Origin: a virus | Lineage: Duplodnaviria; Heunggongvirae; Uroviricota; Caudoviricetes | Length of the DNA: 6,588 bases | Direction: 5' to 3' (one strand) | Virus record (IMG/VR): IMGVR_UViG_2548876940_000021 | Location: 1-6,588 of that record | Shown: in pieces, positions 1-6,588 of the stretch | Position numbering within the stretch: position 1 is the stretch's first letter | Layout of the letters: every line of letters starts with the position of its first letter | Notes under the pieces: generated by a model | What the model saw: only the letters and a program-made list of their open reading frames with translations | Database searches by the model: none | What the model was told of the DNA's origin: nothing | Position numbers and translations under genes: made by a program

Positions 1-135
1 ATGATGCACTTTCAGCTCGCGGGTAGCGGCGTCATGTCCGCTTTCTACCCGCACGAATCTGAATTATCACGCCGAGTTAAACAATTAATCAGAGCAGCAA
101 AGAAACAACTGGAGGCGTTATGCGCAATGAAATAG
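1..135 (+). CDS. cIII-like small protein (FtsH/HflB protease inhibitor family), 44 aa; may extend upstream of the window
   Basis: Stop-free frame from position 1 (ATG ATG) to TAG at 133-135. The translation MMHFQLAGSGVMSAFYPHESELSRRVKQLIRAAKKQLEALCAMK resembles the lambda cIII core as I recall it (..AIAG.PVAG.PSESLLERITRKLRDGWKRLIDIL). Resemblance is from memory, not a search. Confidence 0.5.
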   Translation: MMHFQLAGSGVMSAFYPHESELSRRVKQLIRAAKKQLEALCAMK

Positions 136-272
136 CCATCAATCACCAGATGCTTCGAGCAGCACAAAACAAAGCAGTAATAGCCAGATTTATTGGTGAT
201 TCCAAAATGTGGCTTGAAGCAAATAAAGCGATGAAATCAGCTATCAACCTTCCGTGGTATCGCAGGAAATGA
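120..272 (+). CDS. Kil-like small protein (lambda Kil family, host cell-division inhibitor), 50 aa
   Basis: GGAGG at 111-115 followed by ATG at 120; overlaps the cIII-like ORF by 16 nt. The translation contains AVIARFIGDSKMWLEANKAMK, which resembles the lambda Kil motif I recall (ATFIGDEKMFREA..). Its position after cIII matches lambda gene order. Below the 60-aa cutoff of the ORF track. Confidence 0.45.
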   Translation: MRNEIAINHQMLRAAQNKAVIARFIGDSKMWLEANKAMKSAINLPWYRRK

Positions 273-376
273 GTTTTACAGATAACTGGTCAGACGAAGA
301 ATTCATTCGTCAGATGAAAGAAATGCTCAATCAGCATAAAGAACAGGAGAAAGATGATGATTCTGACTCTGAATGA
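269..376 (+). CDS. Small acidic hypothetical protein, 35 aa
   Basis: ATG at 269-271 overlaps the upstream TGA at 270-272 (ATGA coupling). Translation MSFTDNWSDEEFIRQMKEMLNQHKEQEKDDDSDSE has an acidic tail. Support is positional only. Confidence 0.3.
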   Translation: MSFTDNWSDEEFIRQMKEMLNQHKEQEKDDDSDSE

Positions 377-665
377 TAAGCGTGAAATATCGCAAATCAT
401 CGCAAGTTTTACCGATGAAGATTACGAGCGAATCAACAGTGAAGTTGATCGCCTCTGCAAACGTTGCGACCCAATAAGCGAAATGCTTCGCTCATATAAA
501 CCAGATGAACACACTAAGGACGCTATCGACTGGCTGGAAGATGATGACTGTAACTATCAGGAAAAAGCCGCTGAATGGTTCTGGGATGCAATAACCGAAA
601 GAGTTAAGGCTGAATATGCCTTCGCAATATTCAAACGCAGACATATTTATGGAGAAGCTGCATGA
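354..665 (+). CDS. Hypothetical phage early protein, 103 aa, at the position held by gam in lambda
   Basis: ORF with AGGAG at 345-349 and ATG at 354 or 357. Its stop TGA (663-665) overlaps the recT ATG (662-664). I see no recognisable similarity to lambda Gam. Confidence 0.6.
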   Translation: MMILTLNDKREISQIIASFTDEDYERINSEVDRLCKRCDPISEMLRSYKPDEHTKDAIDWLEDDDCNYQEKAAEWFWDAITERVKAEYAFAIFKRRHIYGEAA

Positions 666-1573
666 GCAATATCGTTGAATTCGTTAAACAGCAAGAGCAG
701 TTATTCTGCGGAGCATTGACTGAACAGACGGTGACATGGGCTAAGGAAAGCCAGTTTGCAATTCAGTATTTCCAGAAAAACGATTACCTGGCTAAAACGG
801 CACTGGCAAATCCAACCAGCGCACAGAACGCCATCATCAATGTTGCGGCGATCGGCATCACCTTAAACCCGGCCAGCAAACTGGCTTATCTGGTTCCGCG
901 CGACGGCATGGTGTGCCTTGATATCAGTTATATGGGATTGCTCCATATTGCAATGGAGTCTGGTGTTATCTCATGGGGTCAGGCAAAACTTGTTCATGCT
1001 AACGATACCTATGAGTCAAACGGGCTTGATAAAGCACCAACCCATAAATACAACGCCTTCGGTGATCGTGGTGATATCGTTGGCGTTTACTGCACAGTTA
1101 AGACGCCAGCAGGTGATTATCTAACGGAAGAGATGAGTCTGGCTGAAATTGAGGCTGTAAGGAAAACAAGCAAGGCGGCATTCAGCGATAAAGGACCATG
1201 GGTAAATCACTGGAATGAGATGGCGCGAAAGACGGTCGTAAAGCGTGCAAGCAAGTATTGGCCTAAGGCATCACGTCTTGATAGTGCTATTCACGTACTA
1301 AACGAAGAAGAAGGTGTGTGGACTGAACCAGTTATGCCGCACAAATCAGAGGAAGATATCCGCGAAGATGAACGGAAACGCCAGCAGGAAATAACGGATA
1401 AAGCACAACTTCTTTGTGATGAAATGGCTCATGCTGAAAACATGGATGATTTGAAGCGATATTTTGCAGAAGCATATCGCCTGACATCTGGAATGAAATT
1501 GCAGCAGAACGTACAAGCCATTTACGCAGAATGCAAAGCGAAACTGGAGGTTGCCAGTGAGCAAACTGTATGA
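662..1573 (+). CDS. recT: RecT-family single-strand annealing protein (Bet/RecT recombinase), 303 aa
   Basis: GGAG at 651-654 then ATG at 662. The segment GPWVNHWNEMARKTVVKRASKYWP matches the conserved RecT motif (Rac RecT GPWVTHWEEMAKKTAIRRLFKYLP, recalled). Size and operon position are appropriate. Confidence 0.9.
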   Translation: MSNIVEFVKQQEQLFCGALTEQTVTWAKESQFAIQYFQKNDYLAKTALANPTSAQNAIINVAAIGITLNPASKLAYLVPRDGMVCLDISYMGLLHIAMESGVISWGQAKLVHANDTYESNGLDKAPTHKYNAFGDRGDIVGVYCTVKTPAGDYLTEEMSLAEIEAVRKTSKAAFSDKGPWVNHWNEMARKTVVKRASKYWPKASRLDSAIHVLNEEEGVWTEPVMPHKSEEDIREDERKRQQEITDKAQLLCDEMAHAENMDDLKRYFAEAYRLTSGMKLQQNVQAIYAECKAKLEVASEQTV

Positions 1574-2039
1574 AATTGCCAATGAATACGCAAAATTGAT
1601 GGATTCAGATTTAGAACCAGAGATGATTGCTGACACAATAGAAGGCATGGAAGGAGAATTTACCGATAAAATAGAGCAACTTCTTTCCGTCATTAAAAAT
1701 GAATCTGGTTATGCCGAACGCCTCAAGGAAGAGGCAAAGTCACTGAATGAGCGAGCCGCAGTAATTCAAAATAAGATTGACAGCATTATGGCGTATATAG
1801 CGTCATCGCTTGAAATGGTTGGCAAGAAAAAGATTCGAGCAGGTATTCACCAGGTAACAATCCGCAAACCGTCAGAAACTGTAGAAATCATCGACTCAAG
1901 CGCCCTTCCTCCTGAATACGTTGAGTTTGAAACGACAATTAAAGCCGACAAACTGGCAATCAAACACCAACTAAAAGCAGGAATAAATATCCCCGGCGCT
2001 CAACTCAAAGTTGGGAAACCTTCACTTCTTATCAAATAA
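1557..2039 (+). CDS. Gp157-family phage protein (Sipho_Gp157-like), about 160 aa
   Basis: GGAGG at 1546-1550 then GTG at 1557 gives an N-terminus MSKLYEIANEYAKL, the characteristic MSKLYEL..Y start of Gp157-family proteins, followed by a coiled-coil-like region. It overlaps the recT 3' end. The ORF track's TTG at 1551 is in the same frame. Confidence 0.75.
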   Translation: MSKLYEIANEYAKLMDSDLEPEMIADTIEGMEGEFTDKIEQLLSVIKNESGYAERLKEEAKSLNERAAVIQNKIDSIMAYIASSLEMVGKKKIRAGIHQVTIRKPSETVEIIDSSALPPEYVEFETTIKADKLAIKHQLKAGINIPGAQLKVGKPSLLIK

Positions 2040-2050
2040 CGGTATCGACT

Positions 2051-2365
2051 ATGAAAAAGACTCCATGGGAGAAATGGGAAGTCGATTTCTTGCGCGAAGT
2101 ATCGGCGACAATGCCAGTTGAAGTTATCGCTGAAAAACTGGAAAGGACTGAAAAAGCAGTAATGGCGAAAGCAACAAGGATTGGTGCTGACATTGTTAGT
2201 CGACTTCGTGGAAGACGCTGGACAAGAGCCGAAGTATCACTTTTCGGTAAGTTCTCCGCAGAAGAAATAGCAATTGCAACCTGCCGCTCAATTTATTCAG
2301 TAAGGGCTATGCGATACAAGCTAAAAAAACTCGATGAAGAAAGAGCGGGCATACGAATAAATTAA
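2051..2365 (+). CDS. Small putative DNA-binding protein with two tandem HTH-like repeats (sigma-70 region 4 / Myb-like), 104 aa
   Basis: Two internal repeats of about 40 aa: [40 protein letters not shown] and [40 protein letters not shown]. Each carries an EIA..L..S/T...V-type recognition-helix pattern. Confidence 0.6.
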
Positions 2366-2381
2366 CAAAGAGGAATTTACC

Positions 2382-2549
2382 ATGAGAGGGCTTGCATACA
2401 ATCCCGGCATTCTTCCGGCAGAAATGATTATTCGCCAACGCGTAAAGCCAATGCCATCGAGAGAGGAATTGCTTAAGAGAAATTCTTTTCCGTCAGTAAA
2501 TCAAAACAAATATCTGAATGCGATGTGGCGCAAAGGAGGCAAGCAGTGA
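2382..2549 (+). CDS. Small hypothetical protein, 55 aa
   Basis: AGAGGA at 2369-2374 then ATG at 2382. Its stop TGA (2547-2549) overlaps the GTG start of the next gene (GTGA). Below the ORF-track cutoff. Confidence 0.45.
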
Positions 2550-2845
2550 GTGTATATCTTATTGATAAACGTCGACGTGGGCAACAAATACCACCTGTAG
2601 GAATTCCGAATCACACATGGTTTTGCGTACTTGATATCGATGGTATGGATGCGTTGGTTGACACTCGTCATTACTGCGATACCGCAACAGCTACTCCGGC
2701 GAAAGCAAAGAAAATGGCTGCTCTGATAGAAAACTGGACTCCACCTGATGGTTGGTGCAATGGGAATGATCGAGATTGGCATGAAAAAATGAAGGGCTAT
2801 ATCTGCGATTTCTTACGTAAATGCAACGGCTTCAGGGTGATGTGA
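2546..2845 (+). CDS. Hypothetical Cys/His-containing phage protein, 99 aa
   Basis: AGGAGG at 2534-2539 then GTG at 2546 six nt downstream. The ORF-track start at 2525 is the same frame, but 2546 has the better ribosome-binding site. Several Cys and His residues suggest possible metal binding. Confidence 0.6.
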
Positions 2846-2846
2846 C

Positions 2847-3485
2847 ATGAACAAGATTGACTATCAGGCACTGCGTGAAGCGGCAGAAAAAGCAACGTGT
2901 GGTGTGTGGTCGCTCGAATATGGAGAGGAGAGATTTGATGCTGGTGATGCGCTAATTCATCGTGACGTTGTTGGATATCTTCCCATTTGCAGAATTGAAG
3001 GAGCGCATCCAGAAAGCGGTTTCGATGAAGATTTCCAAATAGAACAGCAGGCCAATGCTGAATTCATCGCCGCAGCCAATCCGGCTACCGTCTTGGCGCT
3101 GCTTGGCGAGCTGGAAGCAGCAAAAAAGCGCATAGCAGAACTGGAAGCCGAACCTGTAAGCCAAACTTGCAAGTTGAACGAGCCATCGGGCAACTCTCCG
3201 GTAACTCCGGATGGTTGGATAAGCTGTAGTGAGCAGATGCCTGTAATCGGCGAGCTAAATTGGAGAACTAGTTTTCCTTTACTGGTTACGTGTGAGATCG
3301 GCGTTATACCTGCTTATTACGGCTTTGTGAGCGTTAATGGTGATAGGCATTATGGCTTTATGGAGAGTCTTAAATACGGAGACGATAACGGCAACCATCC
3401 TCAAACTAATGAATATGGTCTGATTAGCAATGTCACACACTGGATGCCTCTACCAGAACCGCCTCAGGAGGTTAACCGTGGCTAA
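2847..3485 (+). CDS. Ead/Ea22-like family protein with C-terminal DUF551-like domain, 212 aa
   Basis: N-terminus MNKIDYQALREAAEKAT..ANAEFIAAANPATVLALLGELEAAKKRIAELEA is typical of the Ead/Ea22-like N-region. The C-terminus ends ..VTHWMPLPEPPQ, the hallmark end of DUF551 proteins in enterobacterial prophages. Confidence 0.8.
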   Translation: MNKIDYQALREAAEKATCGVWSLEYGEERFDAGDALIHRDVVGYLPICRIEGAHPESGFDEDFQIEQQANAEFIAAANPATVLALLGELEAAKKRIAELEAEPVSQTCKLNEPSGNSPVTPDGWISCSEQMPVIGELNWRTSFPLLVTCEIGVIPAYYGFVSVNGDRHYGFMESLKYGDDNGNHPQTNEYGLISNVTHWMPLPEPPQEVNRG

Positions 3486-3759
3486 TCTGCAGCTTGCCGT
3501 TAAAGGTGAATACTTCGATGCCATGATTCGCGGTGAGAAAACGGAAGAGTATCGCTTGTGTAATGACTACTGGAATAAGCGAATTATGTTCCGGGAGTAT
3601 GACCGCCTGATTATCACAAAGGGATATCCGAAGCGCGACGACTTCAGTCGCAGAATTGATGTTCCGTATGACGGATATGAAATCAAGACAATCACACATC
3701 CCCACTTCGGCGATAAACCGGTAAAGGTGTTCGCGATAAAGGTGAATATCAATTGCTAA
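3478..3759 (+). CDS. ASCH/PUA-like domain protein, 93 aa
   Basis: AGGAGG at 3466-3471 then GTG at 3478, overlapping the upstream stop. The N-terminal motif LAVKGEYFDAMIRGEKTEEYR fits the ASCH GxKxxExR signature. The ORF-track start at 3430 would overlap the previous gene by 56 nt and is less likely. Confidence 0.65.
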   Translation: MANLQLAVKGEYFDAMIRGEKTEEYRLCNDYWNKRIMFREYDRLIITKGYPKRDDFSRRIDVPYDGYEIKTITHPHFGDKPVKVFAIKVNINC

Positions 3760-3783
3760 ATTAGTAGCATAGCATAAAGATGC

Positions 3784-3807
3784 TTGCATTAATGAAGTGT
3801 GTATAAT
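3784..3807 (+). promoter_or_regulatory. Candidate sigma-70 promoter for the AT-rich cassette (consensus -10 TATAAT at 3802-3807; weak -35)
   Basis: A perfect TATAAT sits about 65 nt upstream of the 63-aa ORF in AT-rich DNA. TTGCAT at 3784-3789 is only 12 nt upstream, which is suboptimal spacing, and hexamers at 16-18 nt spacing are poor. Confidence 0.3.
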
Positions 3808-3871
3808 AACGCCTCATCAATAGTAAACTACTGAAATAGCAAAAAAATGCATATTAAAGAGGATTCGAAAA

Positions 3872-4063
3872 TTGAAAATGTTCATGCAAATAGACAGACG
3901 CATAGATATTAATGGCAATTCATACTTAGTTAGATGCGAAGAGAGGCCTAACGGTGAGTGGCGTGTATATGATATTGACCGTAAGATCAATATCAGCACC
4001 ATGAACAAAGACACTGCCTTTGATGAATGGAAAGCTGAAGCTAAAAAACAACATAATTCGTAG
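3872..4063 (+). CDS. Hypothetical small protein in an AT-rich moron-like insertion, 63 aa
   Basis: ORF with AAAGAGGA at 3856-3863. Start is TTG at 3872, or ATG at 3878 or 3884 in the same frame. Translation MKMFMQIDRRIDINGNSYLVRCEERPNGEWRVYDIDRKINISTMNKDTAFDEWKAEAKKQHNS. The surrounding DNA is clearly more AT-rich than neighbouring genes, and a terminator follows. Confidence 0.5.
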   Translation: MKMFMQIDRRIDINGNSYLVRCEERPNGEWRVYDIDRKINISTMNKDTAFDEWKAEAKKQHNS

Positions 4064-4106
4064 AATTACAAAAACCCTAACCAATTGATGGTTTTCTTTT
4101 ATCTGA

Positions 4107-4130
4107 ACTCGCTACGGCGAGTTTTGTTTT
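4107..4130 (+). terminator. Rho-independent terminator-like hairpin plus T-tract
   Basis: Stem ACTCGC (4107-4112), loop TACG, stem GCGAGT (4117-4122), then TTTGTTTT (4123-4130). It lies 44 nt after the 63-aa ORF stop and directly before the ribosome-binding site of the 114-aa gene. Confidence 0.55.
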
Positions 4131-4143
4131 ATGGAGACAAGAA

Positions 4144-4488
4144 ATGTCAGATTTGGCTATGAAGGTTTTGAAATGGCAATCGACTGGCGATGTAGGCATC
4201 AGTAGCGCAACTCTTGCCTCAATCGCATGTGGACTGAAAAAGAATATCTATGGTCATAGCTTCGGTGCTCCACATGACGCAGCCGATTTCCGACGATGCG
4301 TTGCACTTGTTGAGCAGATTCCAGAAATCAGAGATTCATTCGACAAGGTTGCAAAGCGCGTTCCGGCATTCAAAGGCATCCTCAACGAATGGGATTCACT
4401 CGTTGCTCTGTTGAAGTCTGAAATGAAGACGTATGGGAACAAAGCACCAGAGACTTACAGAAGAATCAGCGAGCTACGCAAGGACTAA
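4144..4488 (+). CDS. Hypothetical phage protein, 114 aa
   Basis: GGAG at 4133-4136 then ATG at 4144. Clean ORF with ordinary composition and no family I can recognise. Terminator-like hairpins lie on both sides. Confidence 0.65.
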   Translation: MSDLAMKVLKWQSTGDVGISSATLASIACGLKKNIYGHSFGAPHDAADFRRCVALVEQIPEIRDSFDKVAKRVPAFKGILNEWDSLVALLKSEMKTYGNKAPETYRRISELRKD

Positions 4489-4545
4489 CCCACCTCACAC
4501 TCGATGAGGCCTGTTCATTGCTCAATGATATCCAGACCTACCATC

Positions 4546-4569
4546 GCCGCATCAATGCGGCTTTTTCTT
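4546..4569 (+). terminator. Rho-independent terminator-like hairpin plus T-tract
   Basis: GCCGC (4546-4550), loop ATCAAT, GCGGC (4557-4561), then TTTTTCTT (4562-4569). It lies 58 nt after the 114-aa ORF stop. Confidence 0.55.
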
Positions 4570-4611
4570 GCCTGATTTGCAGGTTCGATTCCCTATTCGG
4601 AGATAGCACTC

Positions 4612-4812
4612 ATGCAACACGAACTACAACCTGATTCACTGGTTGATTTGAAATTCATCATGGCCGATACTGGCTTCGGTAAAACCTTCATCTATGACCG
4701 GATTAAGTCCGGCGACCTGCCAAAAGCCAAAGTTATCCACGGGCGAGCAAGATGGTTATATCGTGACCATTGTGAATTCAAAAATAAGCTCTTAAGCCGC
4801 GCCAATGGGTAA
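4612..4812 (+). CDS. AlpA-family / excisionase-like HTH regulatory protein (Xis candidate), 66 aa
   Basis: GGAG at 4599-4602 then ATG at 4612. The translation LVDLKFIMADTGFGKTFIYDRIKSGDLPKAKVIHGRARWLYRDHCEFKNKLL follows the AlpA/Xis HTH pattern (..tG.s..tiY.li..G.fP.p.k.g.r..W...ev..w). It is the last gene of the + strand operon. Confidence 0.75.
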   Translation: MQHELQPDSLVDLKFIMADTGFGKTFIYDRIKSGDLPKAKVIHGRARWLYRDHCEFKNKLLSRANG

Positions 4813-4828
4813 AATAGCGGGTAAAATA
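4807..4828 (+). repeat. Tandem direct repeat GGGTAAAATA x2 (period 12) spanning the AlpA-like stop codon
   Basis: Read directly: GGGTAAAATA at 4807-4816 and again at 4819-4828, separated by GC. This is where recombinase arm-type or regulator binding sites might be expected. Confidence 0.6.
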
Positions 4829-4861
4829 TTTCTCACATCTAAAAAACTCCATTCCAATCAA

Positions 4862-4895
4862 TCCCCTGCCGCTTCAAGTAGATGTCTGCAGGGGA
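4862..4895. repeat. Perfect 8-bp inverted repeat TCCCCTGC / GCAGGGGA with an 18-nt spacer
   Basis: Read directly: 4862-4869 and 4888-4895 are reverse complements. No T-tract follows, so it looks more like a protein-binding or recombination site than a terminator. Confidence 0.55.
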
Positions 4896-5288
4896 CACCA
4901 GATACCCTTCAAACGAAATCTACCTTCACCCCGTAAAAGATAGGTTTGGCAGCACACTTGCCTTATATCTACTCATTTTTACTGCAACAGGTTGAAATCT
5001 CAGCACTGTCAGAAAGCGCTGATGACTAAACAGCCCTGGGCCGGGCGATGTAACCATCACACAGAATCCTGATAGCGAAATATGGCGTGACTCGATACTT
5101 CACTCCGCAATGCATTCCTTGATGAATTCGCAGGACCGTGATACACGGGACAGGTCGCTGAATGACGACAATGTCCTGGAAATCAGCGAACCGCGCATCT
5201 GAAGTACATTTGAGCGACTGTACCAGAACATGAATGAGGCGTTTGGATTAGGTGATTATTAGCAGGGCTAAGCACTTTAGTATTATTA

Positions 5289-5332
5289 TTTTCCGGTTGA
5301 GGGATAGGGAGATATCGACAACAACCGGAAAA
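5289..5332. repeat. Perfect 11-bp inverted repeat TTTTCCGGTTG / CAACCGGAAAA with a 22-nt spacer, 9 nt beyond the MFS gene stop; possible terminator or junction element
   Basis: Read directly: 5289-5299 and 5322-5332 are reverse complements. It sits between convergent transcription units, and neither strand has a clean U-tract after it. Confidence 0.45.
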
Positions 5333-5340
5333 GTTTACGT

Positions 5341-6588
5341 CTATATTGCTGAAGGTACAGGCGTTTCCATAACTATTTGCTCGCGTTTTTTACTCAGGAA
5401 GAAAATGCCAAATAGCAACATCAGGCAGACAATACCCGAAATTGCGAAGAAAACTGTCTGGTAGCCTGCGTGGTCAAAGAGTATCCCAGTCGGCGTTGAA
5501 AGCAGCACAATCCCAAGCGAACTGGCAATTTGAAAACCAATCAGAAAGATCGTCGACGACAGGCGCTTATCAAAATTTGCCACGCTGTATTTGAAGACGG
5601 ATATGACACAAAGTGGAACCTCAATAGCATGTAACAGCTTCACTAATGAAATAATCCAGGGGTTAACGAACAGCGCGCAGGAAAGGATACGCAACGCCAT
5701 AATCACAACACCGATAAGTAATGCATTTTTTGGCCCTACCCGATTCACAAAGAAAGGAATAATCGCCATGCATAGCGCTTCGAGTACCACCTGGAATGAG
5801 TTGAGATAACCATACAGGCGCGTTCCTACATCGTGTGATTCGAATAAACCTGCATAAAAGACAGGAAAAAGTTGTTGATCAAAAATGTTATAGAAAGACC
5901 ACGTCCCCACAATAAATATGACGAAAACCCAGAAGTTTCGATCCTTGAAAACTGCGATAAAATCCTCTTTTTTTACCCCTCCCGCATCCGCCGCTACGCA
6001 CTGGTGATCCTTATCTTTAAAACACATGTTGATCATCATAAATACAGCGCCAAATAGCGAGACCAACCAGAAGTTGATATGGGGACTGATACTAAAAAAT
6101 ATGCCGGCAAAGAACGCGCCAATAGCATAGCCAAAAGATCCCCAGGCGCGCGCTGTTCCATATTCGAAATGAAAATTTCGCGCCATTTTTTCGGTGAAGC
6201 TGTCAAGCAAACCGCATCCCGCCAGATACCCCAGGCCAAAAAAGAGCGCCCCCAGAATTAGACCTACAGAAAAATTGCTTTGCAGTAACGGTTCATAAAC
6301 GTAAATCATAAACGGTCCGGTCAAGACCAGGATGAAACTCATACACCAGATGAGCGGTTTCTTCAGACCGAGTTTATCCTGAACGATGCCGTAGAACATC
6401 ATAAATAGAATGCTGGTAAACTGGTTGACCGAATAAAGTGTACCTAATTCCGTCCCTGTCAACCCTAGATGTCCTTTCAGCCAAATAGCGTATAACGACC
6501 ACCACAGCGACCAGGAAATAAAAAAGAGAAATGAGTAACTGGATGCAAAACGATAGTACGCATTTCTGAATGGAATATTCAGTGCCAT
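5341..6588 (-). CDS. MFS transporter, LacY-like oligosaccharide:H+ symporter family, 415 aa
   Basis: Long minus-strand ORF whose ATG is the last three bases of the window. The translation is hydrophobic throughout with about 12 predicted membrane spans. Motifs match LacY as recalled: GIVQDKLGLKKPLIW against LacY GLLSDKLGLRKYLLW, and FNIFDQQ...GTRLYGY...NRVGPKNALL against LacY YDVFDQQ...GTRVFGY...NRIGGKNALL. Confidence 0.85.
   Translation of the reverse strand: MALNIPFRNAYYRFASSYSFLFFISWSLWWSLYAIWLKGHLGLTGTELGTLYSVNQFTSILFMMFYGIVQDKLGLKKPLIWCMSFILVLTGPFMIYVYEPLLQSNFSVGLILGALFFGLGYLAGCGLLDSFTEKMARNFHFEYGTARAWGSFGYAIGAFFAGIFFSISPHINFWLVSLFGAVFMMINMCFKDKDHQCVAADAGGVKKEDFIAVFKDRNFWVFVIFIVGTWSFYNIFDQQLFPVFYAGLFESHDVGTRLYGYLNSFQVVLEALCMAIIPFFVNRVGPKNALLIGVVIMALRILSCALFVNPWIISLVKLLHAIEVPLCVISVFKYSVANFDKRLSSTIFLIGFQIASSLGIVLLSTPTGILFDHAGYQTVFFAISGIVCLMLLFGIFFLSKKREQIVMETPVPSAI

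Follow-up and report, generated by a model that had tools for sequence, protein, structure and literature searches.

The locus at the right end of this prophage raises the question of how a small gene placed between two terminator-like hairpins comes to be expressed, and whether those hairpins belong to the gene at all. The window, by which we mean the whole stretch of 6588 bases that was analysed, is the right end of a lambdoid prophage of E. coli integrated at argW. Its + strand carries co-oriented genes for RecT, Siphovirus Gp157, DUF7739, Ead/Ea22-DUF551 and a weakly ASCH-like protein (PHROG 625, whose homologues carry ASCH annotation), followed in order by a 63-aa ORF, a 114-aa ORF and the gene of a 66-aa HTH protein, the torI product. 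The prophage ends on the right at the attR core CTGCAGGGGACACCA (4886-4900, + strand), which corresponds to the 3' end of tRNA argW and is known as pawZ in K-12. The similarity to K-12 breaks off directly 3' of this core and DNA of the csc sucrose locus comes next, including an oligosaccharide MFS transporter gene at 5341-6588 on the minus strand, beyond the prophage end. A tRNA scan of the window was empty.

The 114-aa ORF, hereafter ORF114 (4144-4488, + strand), starts with ATG and has a ribosome-binding site (RBS), GGAG at 4133-4136, 7 nt 5' of the start codon. Terminators were sought on both strands of the 6588 bases with a d'Aubenton-Carafa-type score and a threshold of d > 0. Only two sites exceeded it on either strand, 4105-4130 (d = 15.7) and 4546-4569 (d = 17.3), while 20 dinucleotide shuffles gave a mean of 0.35 sites with d > 0 per window and a maximum d of 8.6. 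A second terminator scan of the window also placed both hairpins at the top of its list. The upstream one (GAACTCGC-TACG-GCGAGTTT followed by TTTTGTTTT) has its stem at 4105-4112/4117-4124, a TACG loop and a T-tract, broken by a G, that reaches 4130; its RNAfold energy was -11.9 kcal/mol (z = -4.1) and none of 200 shuffles was as stable. The downstream one (GCCGCA-TCAA-TGCGGC followed by TTTTTCTT) has its stem at 4546-4551/4556-4561 and a TCAA loop, and folded at -10.5 kcal/mol (z = -1.8). Both stems are short (6-8 bp), and at both sites a G+C-rich stem-loop is followed by a U-tract on the transcribed strand, as in intrinsic terminators. The hairpin bracket around ORF114 is therefore real and beyond chance, and the preliminary description of the locus, which had reported a 114-aa ORF with a good RBS between two terminator-like hairpins and had proposed to fold and score them, was right in this respect. 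It had missed, however, a weak third hairpin with a T-tract (AACCA/TGGTT plus TTTTCTTTT; 4079-4100, hairpin at 4079-4093, + strand), which is only marginally stable and makes the upstream element a tandem pair.

The same description recognised no conserved family in ORF114, and this could not be maintained. The protein matches PHROG 1229 over its full length (residues 1-114, E 4.8e-51), is 94.7% identical to ORF114 of phage 434 (M60848.1, a 1990 GenBank entry for the int-xis region) and corresponds to HK022_32. Many proteins of E. coli prophages are 96-98% identical to it, and an 861-base query around the gene found at least a partial match in 2458 of 5426 complete E. coli genomes (~45%). In the lambdoid phages ORF114 is the last gene before the excisionase, and the complete gene 3' of it was an excisionase wherever an integration module was present. 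These excisionases belong to several families, namely lambda-type Xis, TorI and other members of PHROG 66, PHROG 2907, and PHROG 539; in one further class of loci, the L052 type, just an 18-aa truncated ORF lies 3' of ORF114.

The int-xis region of phage 434 (M60848.1; complete genome OL657226.1) is the closest known system, with the order t-L4, ORF55, ORF114, t'-I, xis, int. It shares with the window an identical t'-I stem-loop, the same RBS/start junction at ORF114 and the same remnant of an xis gene between the ORF114 stop and t'-I. It differs from the window in several points: the window lacks orf55, so that the tandem hairpins directly precede ORF114, and has an AT-rich cassette with the 63-aa ORF upstream; after t'-I it has torI with no canonical CII box, whereas 434 has pI, a lambda-type xis and int; and the integrase of the window prophage lies at the other prophage end. 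Gene 32 of HK022 (AUM59808.1, 'N15 early protein homolog') agrees with ORF114 in the gene itself, in its flanks and in its position before xis, but HK022 keeps orf55 and a lambda-type xis/int.

The downstream hairpin can be named from this comparison. Its 16-nt stem-loop is identical to the 't'-I' of 434 (M60848.1; positions 968-991 of our locus L001) and to the feature entered as 'terminator, PMID 6305007' in OL657226.1, and it lies 50 nt 5' of the torI ATG; it is thus assigned, by stem-loop homology and position, as a t'I-type intrinsic terminator (4546-4569, + strand). The gene that follows, which had been described as Xis-like, was identified as torI (4612-4812, + strand), a KplE1-type excisionase or recombination directionality factor: its RefSeq homologues are named torI, it belongs to PHROG 66, and it differs from K-12 torI at four nucleotides, all silent by codon reading. 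In 434, the CII site and the -35 of pI follow t'-I at once and xis comes next, while the homology of the window to 434 stops at ~4580. At 4568-4580, after the t'I T-tract, the window has TTGC-N5-TTGC in the place where lambda and 434 have the CII box of pI (TTGC-N6-TTGC). A canonical CII box was searched for near torI and not found, the spacing in the window being one base short. Because the spacing is N5 and not N6, the lambda pI logic is not transferable to torI, and control of this gene by CII seems improbable.

Between the ORF114 stop codon and t'I lies the xis remnant (4492-4542, + strand), a start-less and frameshifted 5' fragment of a P22-type excisionase gene. It aligns with codons 5-21 of the intact excisionase gene of phages SPN9CC and S135, where that gene (PHROG 2907, E 1e-51) is found directly 3' of the ORF114 homologue. 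The window copy has lost its start codon and is thrown out of frame by a one-base insertion; the same fossil is annotated as ypdJ in the KplE1 prophage of K-12. A small conserved stem at 4493-4509 was considered as a third RNA element and rejected, since it lies inside the aligned fossil and is a coding remnant. The fossil marks the breakpoint (CCTACC|) of the joins to different excisionase modules.

The right end of K-12 KplE1 (CPS-53; ypdJ, torI, attR/pawZ) has the xis fossil, the TorI protein and the attR core in common with the window, as well as an exact 16-nt copy of a segment of the argW T-arm, TTGCAGGTTCGATTCC, located in the window at 4577-4592 (+ strand), just 5' of the torI RBS. It differs in having no ORF114, with yfdT preceding ypdJ, in its flank, which is dsdC and not csc, and in its t'I. 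In this cryptic prophage (locus L217, ~1240-1270) the t'I stem-loop has decayed to GCCGTCATAGAGCGT, with the T-tract and the torI upstream region kept. It was also observed that the attR core represents the next 15 nt of argW, ~300 nt beyond the T-arm copy, so that torI stands between consecutive pieces of the tRNA 3' end; in K-12, torI likewise lies between two argW pieces.

Lambda presents the simplest form of the same junction. As in the window, a hairpin with a T-tract lies immediately 5' of the excisionase gene, where the N-antiterminated pL operon comes to its end. Unlike the window, lambda has no ORF114, and its hairpin, GCCGCCTGATGGCGG plus T6, differs in sequence, shares bases with the orf55 (lambdap35) stop codon and borders immediately on pI, after which comes xis. 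Given this layout of orf55, hairpin and pI/xis, the unit formed by ORF114, its RBS and the second hairpin is an insert in 434, in HK022 and in this prophage. The hairpin t'I is part of the junction with the excision gene and not of ORF114.

A similar picture emerged for the upstream element. At the position of its first hairpin, other phages have unrelated and stronger hairpins (CCTCGCACTCGCGGGG, CCCGCCGAGTGCGGG, GCCGCTTAATGCGG), each then followed by the same (A/T)TTTCTTTTAT; the sequence of the first stem-loop thus varies across phages while the shape, a hairpin plus T-tract, is kept. The stem-loop that 434 has at this place is annotated as t-L4, an annotation that spans the first stem-loop alone, and the window has there its different, weak hairpin (4079-4093). 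The hairpin at 4105-4124 corresponds instead to the second stem-loop of 434, just 3' of the annotated t-L4 (L001:295-325), with one G-U change. Lambda, 434 and HK022 have the tandem pair ATCCTCGCACTCGCGGGGATTTCTTTTAT-CTGAACTCGCTACGGCGGGTTTTGTTTTATGGAG upstream of orf55, with essentially the same second element as the window, and lambda therefore shares this linker although it places it before orf55. In the Salmonella phages SPN9CC and S135 the same tandem pair is found directly 5' of the ORF114 homologue (62% protein identity), and it is absent from PY54 and Bas82. A pattern scan detected the second stem-loop in more than 120 viral contigs, preceding at least six different first genes: orf55 was the commonest by far and ORF114 the next, the remaining ones being genes for a 101-aa cysteine-rich protein and an 81-aa HTH protein and two more small ORFs. 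The upstream hairpin is a shared linker and no private element of ORF114. Neither hairpin, then, is a private insulator of the gene, and the insulated unit that had been proposed needs correction in this respect.

The place of the upstream hairpin directly 5' of the RBS had suggested regulation by attenuation, which here would require a switch specific to ORF114, thrown by a protein, by a small molecule or through a leader peptide. The minimum free energy fold of 4064-4143 does contain an alternative outer helix covering the RBS, but this pairing is weak and absent from the centroid structure; the Rfam scan of the window was empty even at E up to 1, there is no leader ORF, and the same element precedes unrelated genes. 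The variants of the stem, moreover, are G-U-compatible transitions only, with no compensatory double changes. Such an attenuator is most improbable, and we found no evidence in support of the earlier suggestion.

The linker continues into the junction TTTTATGGAGACAAGAAATG (4127-4146, + strand), which comprises the end of the T-tract, the RBS and the start codon and occurs a single time in the window. In MS6192 (L003, ~6370-6600), 434 and HK022, the junction sequence TTTTATGGAGAYRAKAAATG stands before both orf55 and ORF114, and the order in MS6192 is 63-aa cassette, tandem hairpins, orf55, ORF114. The window has one copy of TTTTATGGAGAYRAKAAATG and lacks orf55, which would be explained by recombination between the repeated junctions; the arrangement is consistent with the loss of orf55 by recombination or deletion between the two copies. 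A report of 'ORF55' as a trigger of DRT4 was set aside, as that literature concerns phage T5 and is unrelated to the orf55 considered here. The bracket around ORF114 is a product of mosaic evolution, composed of a shared linker upstream and an excisionase-junction hairpin downstream.

The generality of the bracket was surveyed in 83 loci carrying ORF114 or fairly close relatives, mostly close ones, plus five distant phages; a scan of genome contigs for further ORF114 loci yielded 3 loci. A hairpin with d > 0 was present within 75 nt upstream in 81 of the 83 loci, downstream in 47 and on both sides in 46. In the 47 downstream-positive loci the best hairpin was the t'I stem-loop or, once, the GCCGCCTGATGGCGGC of lambda, and none was found downstream in the other 36. 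As these 36 loci have no terminator-scoring hairpin there, the downstream one is dispensable for ORF114 itself. Cronobacter phage ENT47670 (58% protein identity) has different hairpin/T-tracts, GACCCGCTTCGGCGGGTT upstream and the lambda-type GGCCGCCTGATGGCGGC downstream, and in some E. coli ORF114 loci GCCGCTATATGGCGG precedes an excisionase of another kind. Neither hairpin is present in PY54, and only the downstream one in Bas82. The recurrence of unrelated hairpins with T-tracts at the same positions points to selection for the shape of a terminator and not for a recombination sequence. We conclude from this comparison that terminators have probably been selected at two junctions of the operon, as a property of the junctions and not of ORF114.

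It must be considered, in this regard, that the hairpins might terminate poorly, their main roles being to shield processed early mRNA from 3' exonucleases and to serve as conserved linkers for cassette exchange, in which case ORF114 would be transcribed with or without antitermination. The short stems and the interrupted upstream T-tract agree with this explanation. So does the behaviour of the tandem-hairpin linker, which is more conserved than the surrounding genes (hardly any difference separates its copies in lambda, 434, HK022 and the Salmonella phages, although the ORF114 protein of the last is only 62% identical), precedes several different genes, and provides the repeated junction to which the orf55 deletion maps. 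Against it stand the unrelated hairpins that occupy the same positions in different phages, each with its T-tract, and the 434 record, whose depositors list t'-I among the terminators with a reference to experiments (PMID 6305007). On balance we consider this explanation unlikely.

If the hairpins do terminate transcription, a source of transcripts for ORF114 has to be found. The preliminary description had left the choice between terminator read-through and a promoter that it could not see. A scan of 4064-4143, up to the ATG, found no promoter-like site, and with only 13 nt between the end of the T-tract and the ATG there is no space for a promoter before ORF114. This bears on the possibility that ORF114 is a moron. 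In lambdoid phages, morons and conserved boundary sequences are known from the work of the Hendrix, Casjens and Clark groups as small accessory genes that have terminators at their limits and are exchanged at short conserved junctions. ORF114 resembles them in its delimiting terminators and in the swapping at junctions: relative to lambda, it is an insert between orf55 and pI/xis with its own downstream hairpin, and the frequency of matches to all or part of the 861-base query shows that it is very common in E. coli. A self-contained moron expressed from the repressed prophage to the benefit of the lysogen would, however, have its own promoter, and as ORF114 has none it does not satisfy the full definition. 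Its G+C content is also like that of the neighbouring phage genes, it is co-oriented with the early operon, and all the lambdoid relatives examined have it in this same place. That ORF114 is an autonomous moron is therefore quite improbable.

The AT-rich cassette upstream is a better moron candidate. Its G+C content (window 3760-4100) is 0.35-0.37 versus 0.43-0.49 in its neighbours, a bias that ORF114 does not share. The 63-aa ORF that it contains (3872-4063, + strand) matches PHROG 16329 (E 8.5e-49) and is left unannotated by PGAP in related genomes. A perfect TATAAT was observed in the cassette at 3802-3807, and a palindrome, AGCATAAAGATGCT, at ~3772-3785; a usable -35 for this TATAAT was searched for and none was found.

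Of the two options of the preliminary description, it is thus the antiterminated read-through from pL that fits best, and not the unseen promoter. The closest view of the whole operon was given by a prophage at the same argW/csc site that is 97% identical over 78% of window positions 1-5300. Some 6 kb upstream, on the same strand, it encodes cI, entered there as a LexA-family protein, followed by a protein with the annotation of antitermination protein N, and all genes from N to torI are co-oriented. The window itself is without N, nutL and pL, and their presence is deduced from this relative. ORF114 is accordingly proposed to be the last of the accessory genes in the leftward early (pL) operon, having no promoter of its own and depending on antiterminated read-through, with t'I shielding torI; we regard this as the probable arrangement. 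After induction or infection, polymerase starting at pL would be modified by the antiterminator of the phage, which is N in most relatives and put RNA, not N, in HK022. The modified polymerase would pass the tandem hairpins at 4079-4130, transcribe ORF114 and pass t'I at 4546-4569 into torI. Unmodified polymerase would halt at both hairpin sites, and this would apply as well to any transcript begun in the AT-rich 63-aa cassette. We infer both the termination at the hairpins and the read-through from hairpin scores, homology and synteny. ORF114 would then be a delayed-early gene of the lytic phase, and t'I would hold torI silent in the lysogen. Such silencing would matter because the production of TorI is by itself sufficient for excision to start: in prophages of the KplE1 type the integrase gene lies at the other end with its own promoter, and torI expression is enough for excision (PMC2951348). 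Read-through by antiterminated transcription from pL is also the textbook case for xis and int of lambda (PMC2951348).

With respect to the protein, remote-homology and structure searches, which had been proposed for it, led to the PHROG 1229 family but not to a defined function. With clustering at 50% identity, an exhaustive profile search gave at least 2850 clusters, of which 639 reached E 1e-10 or better. The relatives are spread over lambdoid, P22-like, N15-like (PY54) and Mu-like (SuMu) phages, phages of Vibrio and Arthrobacter, the BASEL phage Bas82 and even giant-virus genomes, and those in phage records are all labelled hypothetical. ORF114 had no match in Pfam, NCBIfam or PADLOC, and neither its single sequence nor the profile retrieved anything in sequence searches of the PDB. 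Pfam scans of 66 diverse relatives and of 20 longer, possibly fused ones returned nothing useful except the fusion P0170 described below and one weak zinc-ribbon match. The AF2 model of ORF114 is confident (mean pLDDT 93.7) and all-alpha, with seven helices; Foldseek found no fold match for it in the PDB and only uncharacterised relatives in BFVD. A reading of the N-terminal 'G-I-S-S-x-T' as part of a helix-turn-helix was dropped, as the family profile, compared by hhalign with TetR and with P22-type Xis, gave nothing. In the literature on tL4, ORF114 and PHROG 1229, nothing relevant was found. The family is thus large and without assigned function, and its predicted fold is apparently new.

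Across 66 diverse members of the family seven residues are invariant, S20, P43, D45, D48, R51, C52 and W83, and the polar ones among them suggest a defined active or binding site. The family might accordingly have a specific activity early in infection, for instance the neutralisation of a host defence or an action on nucleic acids or tRNA, although we give this only a small chance. As a guess, ORF114 could be an early accessory factor that the phage can do without, one that serves for example in host takeover or counter-defence.

Some observations on domain and gene neighbourhoods may be added. The metagenomic protein P0170 (558 aa) has an ORF114-like domain (residues 451-537) at the C-terminus of a CCA-adding enzyme, its other domains being a poly(A) polymerase head, an RNA-binding domain and an HD domain; this fusion is a single case and could be an artefact of gene calling. 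P0067 has two ORF114-like domains in tandem. In the non-lambdoid phages Bas82 (L086, 2408-3657) and PY54 (L087, 1458-4418), the ORF114 homologue adjoins recombination-associated exonuclease genes, with a 4-nt overlap in Bas82 between the exonuclease stop and the start of the homologue.

Public records have carried annotations of the ORF114 gene, of t'I and of the tL4 region for decades, and their logic is that of the textbooks. The regulatory layout is ordinary: it repeats the annotation of 434 and the textbook account of lambda, where terminators lie inside the pL operon, antitermination carries transcription past them, and one protects the excision gene. The window offers, nevertheless, a clean worked example of lambdoid mosaicism, combining a shared linker of hairpin and RBS with the deletion of a cassette at repeated junctions and with an xis fossil at the site where excisionase modules were exchanged. 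In KplE1-type prophages, since TorI synthesis alone triggers excision, the t'I hairpin is a plausible safeguard against it, one that has decayed in the cryptic prophage of K-12. Finally, ORF114 is a very common gene with a large family and a confidently predicted, apparently new fold, which makes it a reasonable target for functional screens.
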